The notes under the pieces are model-generated. The model was not told the DNA's origin and did no database searches. It saw only the letters and a list, made by a program, of their open reading frames with translations. From positions 1-25,033 of the IMG/VR virus record IMGVR_UViG_3300025888_000280: 25,033 nt of DNA; one strand, written 5' to 3'. Positions 17,104-23,625 of the stretch are shown here, one piece after another (the stretch's first letter is position 1; every line of letters starts with the position of its first letter). The position numbers and the translations under genes were made by a program. The stretch is from a virus. Its lineage: Duplodnaviria > Caudoviricetes.

Positions 17104-17347
17104 TTTAGAATGGTTATTTAGAGTATATATCCATTAAAAAAATGAAAGGATTAAGGAATAGTCTCAAGTGTATACAGGGTTAAACATCAGGGAGTTCAGG
17201 GTTCAGTGACCAAAAATGCTATATGATGAACGAAAATATTAAGGTGATATCTTGGCTTAATGTTCGATAACATCGATAGATAGCCCCATTATATTTGCCT
17301 GTTTCATTCTTAGCTTTTAAGAATATATAAACAAACGACATACACTA

Positions 17348-17671
17348 ATGCGACTACTTAACCTCAACCAATACGATGATCGTCAACTCTTCTATCGTTC
17401 TAAAGAATGGAGAACTTTAAGACATATAAAGATAGGGTCGCAACCTTTATGTGAATATTGTTTGAAGAAGGATATACTAAAACCTGCAACAGAATGTCAT
17501 CACATCATCGACATATCAGACGTGCCTACAATTGAGAACGCACTCAATTACGACAACTTAATGTCGTTATGTAAAGAGTGTCACAGTCGCATTACTGCAC
17601 AAAAAAAGAGACCCGTTTGGAGTCCCTTTAATCTTAAAGAGTTCATATCTAAGAACTCACTAACAACTTAA
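17348..17671 (+). CDS. HNH endonuclease, packaging-associated (HK97 gp74-like)
   Basis: FYRSKEWRTLR..PLCEYC..ATECHHI..NLMSLCKECHSRIT. Confidence 0.92.
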   Translation: MRLLNLNQYDDRQLFYRSKEWRTLRHIKIGSQPLCEYCLKKDILKPATECHHIIDISDVPTIENALNYDNLMSLCKECHSRITAQKKRPVWSPFNLKEFISKNSLTT

Positions 17672-18110
17672 TATTCCTTTGTACTTCTTCATTACTATCA
17701 TTCTCTTTTGTAAGTTCTACATTATTATGATAGTTCCATACAGTTACATACACCTTATATTGTTTCAATCCTAATGCTTTCATTACTAATGTTGATATGT
17801 ATTGAATCATAACTGTGTCACTTGGTCTACCATTCGTCTTACATTGACTTCGCATTGTAACACAAACAATCAATTTATTCTTTACTATTTGAAATCCTAG
17901 TCCCATCATACAGGAGTTGTTTATATTGTTATTGACTGATATTGCTGCCTGCCTTGACTCCCTGAACTTATTTAAGGTATCAACTATTCTTGGTATTTGT
18001 GGTAGAATCCTGTCTTTATAGCAAGTCTCGTCTACACCGTAAGGTAAGAATAAGAATGAGTTGACTTCTTTGAAGGGTAGAGTGTAGTGATAATTTATAA
18101 GTGGGTTCAT
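17649..18110 (-). CDS. Minimal thymidylate synthase / dCMP hydroxymethylase-fold protein
   Basis: SRQA, Cys in NSCMMGLGFQ, KL...VTMRS, G.PSD and terminal YH, in the order found in the TS family. Confidence 0.7.
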   Translation of the reverse strand: MNPLINYHYTLPFKEVNSFLFLPYGVDETCYKDRILPQIPRIVDTLNKFRESRQAAISVNNNINNSCMMGLGFQIVKNKLIVCVTMRSQCKTNGRPSDTVMIQYISTLVMKALGLKQYKVYVTVWNYHNNVELTKENDSNEEVQRNIKLLVSS

Positions 18111-18543: not shown

Positions 18544-19755
18544 TTAATAATTAAATTTATATTGAGTGAGCTTTAACTGTGTGAATTTCTCTTCTAACTG
18601 TGTGAGAATCTCGTTTCGAATATCCTCGACAAAGTATATACTATCGTGAACGGAAAGTGCTCCTTGATTTGAGAATTGATTTGTTATTGGAATGAATATG
18701 TCGCTTTCCTGTCTTTGTAATCTCTCACATAAAGTTGTCTTTTCATTTAGTAACATAGTGTATAATGTTGGAAATTCTTTTCTAAATATTGTTGTAAAAG
18801 GTGGTTCAGTTCCACCAAGTTTGAAAAGTAGTTTTAAGAATTCTGGTTTAGCGTGTAATTCTCTATCATTAATAAACTTTTTTACTTTAATGCTTTGATT
18901 TTTATCATAACACATATAGGATTCCTGACCAGATTCCTTCCATTTATTGAGAAACCAATTGTATATGTCATCTTCTACAACTATATTATAGAATCTATTA
19001 GCTTCATCTGTATTGTACTTAGAAAGCATATATGAAGCAAACAAGTATGGTTGAGATGACTTTAAGTCAATTGAAATAAGAGGTTTGTTATCAATAGTAC
19101 AAAATGAACGTAATTCTCTCTTCATTAGATTGAAATTCGTAAATACCCTGTTACTATGATCGCCTTTTATAGAAATAATACGTTTATCATTAAGGTCTAA
19201 TACATACCTGAAATAGATACGTAATTTATTTGATGATAAATTTTGTGAGTTAATCCAAGTTGTAGCTTTAATTGTATCAATTTTGAACCTATCACTTTTT
19301 AAAAGATTGTATTGAGGTAATAAGTAAAGATCAGTTGGAACTTCACGTTCTGAAATAATCTTCTCATATAGTTCATCTGATATTTCTTCTTGAACAATGA
19401 TGCTTTCTTGTTCACTAAGTAAGTATTCAAAATATGGTGAATAAAAATAATTACGACAAAGTCTTTTTTCCTTGTTGTATGATGTTGAAACAAGAATGTT
19501 TTTATCAATAAGAGTTTTGAGAATTATGTCTAATCTCCATTTTCTTTTTCCACTGACTGTAGTAAGTCCATATTTTATTCGTTCCTTATTGTTATTGATG
19601 TATGGCATCTCATCATTTTTAATGTAAGCCATATTTTCTTCAAGTTTTAAGAGAAACAATAGATAATGCTCTCTTGTAGTTGTTTTATCATAACTATCTG
19701 ATAAAAGTTCATCAAATAATTTGATTTGATTTTGGGTAAATGAAATTAGTTTCAT
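18544..19755 (-). CDS. Family-A polymerase-like protein (palm/fingers only) with possible N-terminal winged helix
   Basis: NRVFT..N..KRELR; motif A SIDLKSSQP; motif B R...K..L.LLF; LQRQES; motif C SVHDSI. Confidence 0.72.
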   Translation of the reverse strand: MKLISFTQNQIKLFDELLSDSYDKTTTREHYLLFLLKLEENMAYIKNDEMPYINNNKERIKYGLTTVSGKRKWRLDIILKTLIDKNILVSTSYNKEKRLCRNYFYSPYFEYLLSEQESIIVQEEISDELYEKIISEREVPTDLYLLPQYNLLKSDRFKIDTIKATTWINSQNLSSNKLRIYFRYVLDLNDKRIISIKGDHSNRVFTNFNLMKRELRSFCTIDNKPLISIDLKSSQPYLFASYMLSKYNTDEANRFYNIVVEDDIYNWFLNKWKESGQESYMCYDKNQSIKVKKFINDRELHAKPEFLKLLFKLGGTEPPFTTIFRKEFPTLYTMLLNEKTTLCERLQRQESDIFIPITNQFSNQGALSVHDSIYFVEDIRNEILTQLEEKFTQLKLTQYKFNY

Positions 19756-19757
19756 TG

Positions 19758-19869
19758 GTCACGGTATTATTTTATTTAAATAGCAAAAGAGGTTCAAGGA
19801 AACCGTGACGAAACCTATAGAACCTCTTTTCTATTTTGAAAAATATCTTTATAATCTTATTCACGGTTT
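19758..19869 (-). promoter_or_regulatory. Structured 5' leader (element A)
   Basis: Stem 19778-19795/19820-19836; loop complementary to 19861-19869 and 19758-19765. Confidence 0.7.
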
Positions 19870-19911
19870 AATTATATATTCATTTAAAAATTCGACTTTG
19901 TACACTTTTAC

Positions 19912-20005
19912 AAAAAGCAATTCCTGAGTAACGAACAACCATAACTCAGGAATTAAAAATGAAACAAATTATATCTTTTTACCTGTTGCTGAGGTATATC
20001 TTTCT
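19912..20005 (-). ncRNA. Candidate ~90-nt small RNA or 3' element (element B)
   Basis: TTGATATATA motif at 20010-20019; small hairpin 19980-19996; 11-bp terminator-like stem 19919-19954 with T tail; no ORF. Confidence 0.5.
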
Positions 20006-20050
20006 ATATTATATATCAATTGAAATAAATTGAACTTTATTGGCTCAATG

Positions 20051-20500
20051 TCAAACATTCTCGCCATTTCTAATTTCCTGTATCTTATTATGCCAAATCT
20101 CTCTTAATTTTTCACAATGTTCTTTTTCTTCTTTAGTTCGTCCACGTATAGGATGTTCTAATGCATATTCAATTGCGGTATTATGTAATTTTTTAACAAG
20201 GTTATAATTTTCGTGACTTATATAGTGTTCACCTCTTGGTCTTCCAACGTGTCTTTCTCCTTTAATGTAAGGTCTATAATTATCGTCAGGTCTAATTAAG
20301 CCTTCTAATATTTTTTGTTTCCTAAGTTCACTAAAAACAGATTTTTCATTTCGTATTCTATGATATTCACTCATATCTTCATAATAGATGTCTGTTATCA
20401 TAGGTGATACTTCTACAATTTTAACATATGCTGGATGATGAGACATATTCTTTTTGAAATTGTCTATTATTTTTAAGTAACTGTATAGTCTTAGGTTCAT
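20051..20500 (-). CDS. Hypothetical basic protein with AT-hook-like GRPR
   Basis: 149 aa; RHVGRPRG; AAAATAA leader. Confidence 0.6.
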   Translation of the reverse strand: MNLRLYSYLKIIDNFKKNMSHHPAYVKIVEVSPMITDIYYEDMSEYHRIRNEKSVFSELRKQKILEGLIRPDDNYRPYIKGERHVGRPRGEHYISHENYNLVKKLHNTAIEYALEHPIRGRTKEEKEHCEKLREIWHNKIQEIRNGENV

Positions 20501-20592
20501 AGTCTTGATTTATTATTTTGTTTTCTCGATGAATAATCCGTTATTACAAATATGAGCAATGAGAGTAATAGGGTAAGTGCAAGTAGTGTCAT
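20497..20592 (-). CDS. 31-aa single-TM peptide
   Basis: MTLLALTLLLSLLIFVITDYSSRKQNNKSRL*; starts 8 nt after the upstream stop and ends in an ATGA overlap with the next gene. Confidence 0.65.
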   Translation of the reverse strand: MTLLALTLLLSLLIFVITDYSSRKQNNKSRL

Positions 20593-20600
20593 AGTTTTGA

Positions 20601-20744
20601 TTATAATTTTATTTCAAGTAAAGCGATTTCGTGTTGTACTTGTAAGTCACGTTTTGCTTTAGCAAGATGTGCTTCTATTGCTACCTTTACATCTGCATTT
20701 AGTTTTGCAAAGTCTGCAAGTAATTCTTCTCTTCTGGTTTTCAT
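20601..20744 (-). CDS. Small coiled-coil protein (47 aa; 66 aa if started at 20801)
   Basis: MKTRREELLADFAKL...; start at 20744 supported by a leader shared with the upstream gene. Confidence 0.55.
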   Translation of the reverse strand: MKTRREELLADFAKLNADVKVAIEAHLAKAKRDLQVQHEIALLEIKL

Positions 20745-20800
20745 ATTTTTATATTTTTTTAGTTGTTGTAAGCTTCTGTGTCTATCTGTATCATTGCTCA

Positions 20801-20983
20801 TTATTTCTTTATTATTCTATATACATTGATATATCTATAAATTAAAGATGCCGGCACGTCCCATTTATTCATAACCCAATTTATATTCATATCAAATTGT
20901 ACCATTAGTTGTATGTCATCTAACATATCTAAAAAAGCTTTTACCTCTTCTGGAGGTGTGCAATAAGGTTTTGGTATTTTCAT
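20801..20983 (-). CDS. Small protein, possible HTH
   Basis: 60 aa; NINWVMNKWDVPASLIYRYI resembles a helix-turn-helix. Confidence 0.5.
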   Translation of the reverse strand: MKIPKPYCTPPEEVKAFLDMLDDIQLMVQFDMNINWVMNKWDVPASLIYRYINVYRIIKK

Positions 20984-21063
20984 AGGTTTATATTTTTTTA
21001 GTTGTTTATTTTATTTATACACGATTGTTTTTCTTCAAAGGTGCAGTCGTTGTCGGTATTTCT

Positions 21064-21156
21064 AAAAAGAAAACCCCGAATTCTCCTACGACAAAGGAAT
21101 TCAGGGTTGTTCATACTTATGAAAATTTAGTATATTGTTTACCTGTCGTAGTAGGT
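21064..21156 (-). promoter_or_regulatory. Terminator-like hairpin with upstream partner hairpin (element C)
   Basis: Stem 21072-21083/21097-21108 with T tail; loop complementary to 21144-21151 and 21427-21435. Confidence 0.7.
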
Positions 21157-21166
21157 TTGTGTTTGC

Positions 21167-21427
21167 TTATTCTAATGTCTTTTTATGCTTTTGATTCGTA
21201 TTAATGTTTTTCATATTTATACTTACAATTCCTACAATATCTATAGATTCGTTAAACGGAACTTTATATGTACGATACATTGTATGGTGAGGAACCTTAA
21301 ATGAAATTGGAATGTAAGTAGCATCATCTGTCATATAGATGCATTCTCCTATAACTTTCATTTTGTTAGATTTGAGATAATTGATTGTTGCAATTACTCG
21401 ATTGTCGTGTTTTTCTGCTTTTTTCAT
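21167..21427 (-). CDS. Hypothetical protein
   Basis: 86-aa ORF with A-rich leader and promoter motifs upstream. Confidence 0.55.
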   Translation of the reverse strand: MKKAEKHDNRVIATINYLKSNKMKVIGECIYMTDDATYIPISFKVPHHTMYRTYKVPFNESIDIVGIVSINMKNINTNQKHKKTLE

Positions 21428-21572
21428 TGTCGTAGTTTTAGTTTAGTTTATAGATTATATGTATCAAATCTTCTATTGTTTTCAGATTGCCTGTTAAACT
21501 TGAGTTAATGTATCTAATCTATATAGTATATATTCAAAGTCAAACATCAGCAAATGTGCCGTTAGTGTAAGG

Positions 21573-22832: not shown

Positions 22833-23255
22833 ATGAAAACAAAAACATCAACAACCAGACAGTTCACTTCAGTAAATGATTGGATTAAATCAAACCCAAG
22901 TGAAGAAGAAACAAAGAAAGTTTTAGAACTGATTAACAAAACAGGTAAAAGAGAACTTAAACAACTTCTTTGGGAAAAACGTAAAGAACTTAACAAATTA
23001 ACAAAGTTTGCAGATCAACTAAAGGAATGGGGGTTTAAAATATCAGATGACACAGCTGCAAAGGATATAGCAGAGAGAATCAAGACTGTTATCAATGAGA
23101 TACAGGAACTTCAAACAGAAATCGGTCCGGTAATCAAACGGATCAAGAAAGTAGAAGAAATTGAAGAAGAATTCAATGTTGAAGAAAACGCCAAAGGTGT
23201 AAAACAAGGTCCAAATGACAAATCTGTTAAAGGACCAAAAGAAACTAAAGAATAA
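22833..23255 (+). CDS. Hypothetical coiled-coil protein, paralogue 1
   Basis: 140 aa; DWIKSNPSEEETKKVLELINK. Confidence 0.8.
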   Translation: MKTKTSTTRQFTSVNDWIKSNPSEEETKKVLELINKTGKRELKQLLWEKRKELNKLTKFADQLKEWGFKISDDTAAKDIAERIKTVINEIQELQTEIGPVIKRIKKVEEIEEEFNVEENAKGVKQGPNDKSVKGPKETKE

Positions 23256-23267
23256 TCAAACATCCAT

Positions 23268-23297
23268 AAAAACCCGGTCTAACACACCGGGTTTTTT
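23268..23297 (+). terminator. Intrinsic terminator
   Basis: AAAAACCCGGT/ACCGGGTTTTT stem with T tail. Confidence 0.85.
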
Positions 23298-23319
23298 GTT
23301 CACATAAACTTATAACATT

Positions 23320-23625
23320 ATGAAACATTATAAAACACTTACAGAATGGCTTCTAAGTAACCCATCAGAGGTTGAAAAAAAGAAGTTAATTAACCTTATT
23401 AATAAAGGTATTACTAATCCTACAAGGAAAGAGATTTATGAATTAGAAAGGTATTACCGTAAACTATCTGTCGGAGAAAATTATATGAAGAAACTTGGTT
23501 ACTCACCAATCAAAGAAACACAAGATAGAATGAAAGAAGTGAAAGTTCAAATTAATAAGTTATCAGAAGGTCTTCCTGCTCCATTACAAAGTGCTAAGAA
23601 GAATGAAGTGGATGAAACCAAGTAG
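23320..23625 (+). CDS. Hypothetical coiled-coil protein, paralogue 2
   Basis: 101 aa; EWLLSNPSEVEKKKLINLINK. Confidence 0.8.
   Translation: MKHYKTLTEWLLSNPSEVEKKKLINLINKGITNPTRKEIYELERYYRKLSVGENYMKKLGYSPIKETQDRMKEVKVQINKLSEGLPAPLQSAKKNEVDETK

Follow-up and report, generated by a model that had tools for sequence, protein, structure and literature searches.

The window analysed here, a stretch of 25,033 nt, is part of a 31,051-nt provirus record that is 98% complete, and its GC content is 33% or lower in most bins. Pfam and PHROG searches identified terminase, HNH and thymidylate-synthase-like genes within it. At its start the provirus record carries a piece of a Mg-chelatase-like host gene, together with a serine recombinase. 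At locus L214:1-2356 a serine integrase adjoins a truncated Mg-chelatase-like gene, which we take to be of the comM type, followed by a 752-aa restriction-methylase fusion. The truncated gene is the likely insertion site. The host likely belongs to the Bacteroidota, since the closest homologue of the 403-aa polymerase ORF of the window in a named genome sits in a Bacteroidales MAG (44% identity). None of the early ORFs scanned was recognised as a CI-type repressor, by a kind of scan that remote families can escape; two neighbouring paralogous early ORFs of no known family (22833-23625, 29% identity) are regulator candidates. A 153-aa thymidylate-synthase-like fragment next to the replication slot (17649-18110) is kept in related phages.

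Three RNA elements of about 110 nt each (A, B and C) lie on the minus strand of this window, with the following features.

21428..21435, minus strand: second tag of C, CUACGACA, directly before the AUG (21427) of the upstream 86-aa ORF
21167..21427, minus strand: 86-aa ORF of no recognised family, between the two tags of C
21141..21156, minus strand: small hairpin of C, ACCU-ACUACGAC-AGGU, showing tag T1, just past the stop of the 86-aa ORF
21072..21108, minus strand: terminator-like hairpin of C, with a 12-bp stem and a 13-nt loop containing UGUCGUAG (anti-tag 21093-21086)
20999..21006, minus strand: AACAACUA, possible partner of the B loop, in the start region of a 60-aa ORF
20760..20767, minus strand: AACAACUA, possible partner of the B loop, upstream of the AUG at 20744
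20010..20017, minus strand: predicted RATATATA promoter-like box of B
19981..19995, minus strand: small hairpin of B, ACCU-CAGCAAC-AGGU, with the weak tag AGCAAC (19990-19985)
19918..19955, minus strand: terminator-like hairpin of B, with a 12-bp stem and the loop UAUGGUUGUUCGUU (anti-tag GUUGUU)
19873..19880, minus strand: predicted RATATATA promoter-like box of A; the same box stands ahead of the terminase, portal and other late genes
19861..19869, minus strand: 5' tag T1 of A, AAACCGUGA
19840..19849, minus strand: conserved spacer motif of A, AAGAUAUUUU
19785..19830, minus strand: terminator-like hairpin of A, with an 11-bp stem (19830-19820/19795-19785) and a 24-nt loop
19758..19765, minus strand: second tag T2 of A, ACCGUGAC, at -10..-3 of the polymerase-like AUG at 19755
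18544..19755, minus strand: 403-aa family-A-polymerase-like gene led by A

An earlier note on this DNA had described three minus-strand elements, each with a tag, an AU-rich spacer and a terminator-like stem, and all three were found as placed. Its claim of a further tag copy beside a start codon in A (19765-19758) and C (21435-21428) was likewise borne out. The spacer is indeed AU-rich, but the distance from tag to stem measured 29-34 nt, a little less than the roughly 40-50 nt claimed. The anti-tag of A, UCACGGUUU, lies within the hairpin loop at 19808-19800, and A/U tracts flank this hairpin on both sides. In C, the tag CUACGACA occupies 21151-21144 on the minus strand; this element has no box directly ahead and is located after the 86-aa ORF.

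The 403-aa gene behind A is likely PolA-like and a replication protein. It has invariant D230, K303 and H370-D371 motifs, and its structure model (pLDDT 89.9) retrieved in Foldseek, among the matches listed, family A polymerases in every case, the matches being weak (best E 0.009). Furthermore, an Atlas structure neighbour (TM 0.74) carries family A polymerase as its automatic name. Pfam and PHROG gave no convincing match for this ORF, and a sequence search of the PDB retrieved nothing. A link of this ORF to TV-Pol (PMC2579912) is putative.

Tag-loop pairing was scored with 1 for A-U, 2 for G-C and 0 for G-U. Complementarity between loop and tag, originally proposed for all three elements, was confirmed for A (score 13) and C (12) against mismatched controls of 7.5 +/- 1.5, whereas B remained at chance (7). 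The hairpins of A, B and C have fold z-scores of -2.6, -3.2 and -3.4, respectively. The loop of A pairs with the start region at -13.8 kcal/mol versus -11.6 kcal/mol with the 5' tag, and the loop of C reaches -13.4 kcal/mol with the start region of the upstream gene. Within the window, the tags of A and C occur only at the tag and second-copy sites, and the element itself is the only source of anti-tag. The start region of A contains neither an ORF that could encode a leader peptide nor, in sequence or fold, a start-masking hairpin.

The loop of B likely reads start regions lying upstream in place of its own tag, which would make B a variant of the element. Its tag-loop pairing amounts to -3.8 kcal/mol with a pairing probability of 0.01, compared with -7.8 and -8.1 kcal/mol for the AACAACUA start regions at 21006 and 20767. 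The counterpart of B in L210 keeps the hairpin and the loop core, lacks the tag hairpin and has a similar start-region site (-8.8 kcal/mol). Because such A/C-rich starts are common, these pairings are only suggestive. What stands of the earlier proposal is a covarying RNA family in which a terminator-like hairpin is tied to start-codon regions; the tag-loop pair of B is weak, and the B-like hairpin of L210 has no tag.

Searches with polymerase alignments yielded 13 viral, 54 metagenome and 16 genome loci, and terminase, nuclease and thymidylate-synthase-like queries retrieved further related phages. Of 23 candidate leaders, L133 was dropped for lack of a hairpin by our routine, leaving a curated set of 22 copies picked mostly for pairing. 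The leader order is a RATATATA box, tag, spacer, stem-loop and U-rich tail, usually followed by an AUG. In these 22 copies 3-27 nt separate the box from the tag, which a small hairpin often displays; the spacer carries the motif AAGAWAUUUU or UUAAUUGUUUCRU and aligns poorly among copies; the stem has 9-16 bp and the loop 7-28 nt; and in 17 copies the AUG is found 21-39 nt past the stem. An interpretation of the spacer motif as an antisense TAnnTTTG box or a conserved antisense ORF was ruled out by inspection. Six copies (A and five others) carry a second tag beside the start codon that follows, within -13..-2 of its AUG; four of these stand before PolA-like genes and two before unassigned ORFs, and the other 16 have none at the next AUG. 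In five copies, tag helices of 12-14 bp form in loops of 17-22 nt and leave 3-9 loop bases free, while L122 and L189 have one tag in common, different stems and fully paired 7-nt loops.

The genes behind the leader are diverse. It precedes PolA-like, DnaD-like (L223) and homing-endonuclease-like/HNH genes (two in L210), as well as unassigned ORFs that take up the corresponding genomic slot in L210 and L225. Indeed, unrelated genes occupy the polymerase slot with the leader unchanged at L210:5950-6564, L223:5427-6131 and L225:6930-7571, and L210 has three leaders with three different tags.

At least five U are found in the eight nucleotides after the last G-C pair in 19/22 copies, compared with 14% of 1694 control 8-mers. 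The G+C stem followed by a U-tract of an intrinsic terminator is thus present, with loops that are mostly oversize; a consensus terminator scan admitting loops of 3-8 nt did not pick up A, B or C. Of the RATATATA box, 8.6 occurrences would be expected in the window and 19 are present, 17 of them on the minus strand; 14 of the 19 are intergenic with a start downstream, including those of terminase and portal. Boxes stand before most lytic gene units, on the minus strand at 21534, 20017, 19880, 17131, 15015, 13707, 11780, 10032, 8873 and 1895, and on the plus strand at 17322. To judge by this distribution the box is probably a phage lytic promoter. It differs from the TAnnTTTG host consensus, and no sigma factor or activator for it was recognised.

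The curated copies having been chosen largely for pairing, the cognate partner being best in 19/22 of them is to be read with that selection in mind, and an unselected set was built from the 38 loci with a polymerase match reaching the N-terminus. Excluding 12 duplicates and two loci without upstream DNA left 24 loci, including the phage of the window and one near-identical pair. A hairpin lies within 150 nt of the start in 15 of these loci and is absent in nine. The earlier note had named similar match rates in shuffled terminator loops as a refutation, and the comparison with mismatched loops came out in its favour: 9/15 hairpins scored at least 11 with their own upstream sequence versus 1.9% of 210 mismatched pairs, with means of 10.5 and 7.1, respectively (rank test p=1.3e-5, the pairs not being independent). 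Downstream pairing is weaker and not significant in this set (p=0.08), with scores of at least 10 in 5/15 versus 1.9%. A generic tag-loop scan returned 37 matches in 337 kb of family loci (duplicates included), many behind a TATA-like box, compared with 20 in 251 kb of background, none of them behind a box.

Homologous loci retain loop-tag complementarity with different sequences, in agreement with the view that tags vary while pairing is kept. Between A, L188 and L152, both sides change in 3/9 tag pairs and 5/11 stem pairs (three sequences only), and the covariation score was reached by 2/500 shuffles, slid controls being lower. L188 has CCACGA in place of CCGUGA, a change made jointly by its tag, loop and start-codon tag. 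On alignment A8, column covariation was unusable because of noise. These comparisons lend no support to the idea of a sequence-addressed code, as tags change no faster than stems and L122 and L189 have a common tag. Isolated non-Watson-Crick pairs in the stems comprise six G-U, no A-C and one other, and this excess of G-U over A-C favours a single-stranded nucleic acid, RNA, of the minus strand.

When the RNA is cut at the end of the loop, the tag is paired (P of at least 0.97) in 20/22 copies, the exceptions being B and its L210 counterpart. With the tag and the whole hairpin present, the hairpin wins in 20/22 and the tag is paired with P of 0.9 or more in L135 and L136; as the folding program excludes pseudoknots, "wins" here leaves aside any state in which the two helices coexist. 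With 6-9 nt of the 3' arm present the tag mostly stays paired, and the hairpin takes over at the full arm in most copies. Adding 120 nt of upstream sequence, as in read-through transcripts compared with those from the own promoter, left tag pairing unchanged. The 12-14-bp tag helices of five copies would be incompatible with a fully closed stem. In L122 and L189, loops of 7 nt are compatible with a stable kissing interaction.

Starting from the observed complementarity, its covariation, the strand bias and the gene context, we infer transcription, termination, the order of folding and the direction of each effect. We see an even chance that A and C constitute a co-transcriptional RNA switch joining a terminator-like hairpin to start-region pairing. 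The 5' tag would capture the loop sequence before the terminator closes, so that the polymerase reads through; the hairpin would close later, and the freed loop would then pair over the start region and turn translation off. Each transcript from the predicted lytic promoter would give a short or leaky burst of protein, which would suit replication proteins and nucleases, and such a switch would likely limit the expression of both. In copies that have no second tag, attenuation would be the only effect, and C would exert its effect backwards, on the gene preceding it. The switch model does not accommodate B and its L210 counterpart, which count against it. Also against it are the 16 copies that have no second tag at the next AUG, the non-significant downstream pairing in the unselected set and the nine polymerase loci with no such hairpin in the 150 nt before the start.

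Among the alternatives, we weighed a trans-acting feedback of the P4 CI kind, a tentative reading to which we give a rather low probability. The loops of terminated leader RNAs would bind the tags of new transcripts and cause termination and repression, and the tags would set copy-control or immunity groups. The six copies with a second tag, four of them ahead of PolA-like genes, reproduce the order of P4 seqA-CI-seqC (PMC4825925, accessible text), an antisense segment between upstream and downstream complementary sites; in P4 premature termination controls the replication genes of a temperate element, as it would here. The tag often displayed in a small hairpin loop, the element as sole source of anti-tag in the window and the lack of a recognised CI-type repressor among the early ORFs scanned are all in its favour, and cleavage within the conserved AU-rich spacer motif could remove the tag. 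On a role in lysogeny or immunity the observations point both ways: the record is a provirus with an integrase, yet the box of A and B also precedes late genes and may therefore be silent in a lysogen. The tag divergence no faster than that of stems and the tag common to L122 and L189 also speak against this reading, and no clear distant start-codon targets were found in the records searched. The antisense segment here is a terminator loop, whereas a CI-like processed RNA is a feature of P4, and the leader differs further in having no Rfam match, a likely Bacteroidota host and several differently tagged copies per genome. It is doubtful, if conceivable, that a 30-kb genome carries orthogonal RNA-only feedback loops, each terminated leader repressing its own leader via a private 7-14-base tag; and with similarly slight probability temperate phages would set their replication dose in this way, and perhaps exclude superinfecting kin, with a cassette that could stand ahead of any gene for replication or for a nuclease.

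We judge it unlikely that the mRNA 5' end adopts a static fold, kissing or pseudoknotted, that serves stability or protein binding without switching; the second tag would be an alternative docking site that damps translation. The fully paired 7-nt loops of L122 and L189 agree with such a fold, as does a tag 3-27 nt past the box, near the predicted 5' end, but the enriched U-tracts and the long tag helices with 3-9 free loop bases in five copies do not, and a leader preceding unrelated proteins argues against binding of the gene product. We consider very improbable a mechanism of the IncI/IncB type, in which a pseudoknot between loop and start region activates translation and an opposite-strand antisense RNA blocks it. 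The loop is complementary to a site just before the replication-gene start, as in ColIb-P9 (PMC4705826, accessible text) and other IncI/IncB/IncK rep leaders (PMC10724649, likewise), and A/U tracts stand on both sides of the hairpin of A. However, activation by the pseudoknot of those leaders depends on a leader peptide as well as on an antisense RNA, and the present analysis found neither; the 5' tag is an additional part, and the second tag covers -13..-2, presumably inside the ribosome footprint, with no start-masking hairpin. A TAnnTTTG or RATATATA box on the opposite strand was found in 1/14 loci and not for A, chance being about 0.2 TAnnTTTG per locus; for one locus, L139, the anchor was not an ATG. 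Equally far-fetched is a reading of the tags at the level of DNA, as repeats that represent protein sites or scars of duplication, with the hairpins as ordinary terminators. Tag, anti-tag and second tag do form direct and inverted repeats in DNA, but the stems show six G-U and no A-C pairs, the anti-tag is always within the loop, and a single protein site is unlikely because tags differ between phages and between copies in one phage.

In the maturation gene of MS2, slow folding leaves the start region open to translation for a limited time before covering it; that timer belongs to an RNA phage, has no terminator and adopts a different fold. In C4 RNA of P1/P7, variable loops pair with a translation-start site and a few base changes alter specificity, but C4 has three stem-loops, with a' and b' loops, and is excised by RNase P, compared with one or two hairpins here (PMC5320573, PMC6906374). 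In T-even homing endonuclease leaders (PMC2988022, accessible text), nuclease expression is kept low by an RNA structure next to a late promoter, and the present leader also stands before HNH genes. In T4 it is only on long transcripts that the hairpins conceal the start, the promoter being inside the structure, whereas in A, B and most relatives tag and hairpin are downstream of the box. The leader works like antisense and attenuation systems without being a member of them: with C4, IncI and T-even leaders it has single features in common, while the defining ones fail.

The family had not been recognised earlier, and Rfam agreed: the Rfam 15 covariance models gave no match at E<=1 in the window and, in 12 relatives, two chance-level matches away from the elements. 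A scan of viral contigs with the B/C motif returned 120 loci, and among 124 pattern matches only the phage of the window had a matching loop; the A-type motif returned four loci, three of them chance-like. A three-part motif scan covering about 54 of 64 parts gave 98 distinct matches, two with a hairpin, both already known and both pairing. INPHARED phages yielded three weak matches and PLSDB plasmids none, and a search of sequencing runs listed none with the RNA. At distant polymerase-like loci of Bacteroidales genomes (12 of 401), no clear element was seen in the 12 loci, with two chance-like matches. A description of the leader was not found in the literature searched outside subscription journals, PMC5737381 and PMC10690425 included as far as accessible; the 10,006 candidate RNAs of the latter, largely from IMG/VR, may include it. 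On these comparative grounds, the leader RNA is real, covarying and apparently uncatalogued, and a switch is plausible, while the earlier note made too much of B.

If true, the switch model would provide a compact protein-free device that couples termination to translation in Bacteroidota, a group without Shine-Dalgarno control (PMC6847099, accessible text). For small temperate phages in which one promoter type serves replication and virion genes, it would account for the rationing of replication proteins and nucleases. The natural variants are ready compensatory mutants and so allow a cheap test. Acting in trans, the leaders would represent a second circuit of the P4 type, built independently of the first, and would offer orthogonal RNA parts as a natural set.

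Some loci depart from the common layout. A second leader type without a 5' tag, in which an upstream segment is complementary to one or two start-codon sites, precedes polymerase homologues at L124:5816-5988, L126:5786-5958, L128:1040-1212, L141:1124-1296 and L158:5100-5266. In L124 a tRNA-shaped piece stands ahead of this leader, which ARAGORN does not call as a tRNA. At L137:250-316, an imperfect second tag is followed by AUG-UAA, 30 nt before the polymerase start. Tandem hairpins precede the polymerase gene at L127:5740-5970, where the first loop pairs with the 5' tag and the second with the spacer motif and the -11..-3 start region.
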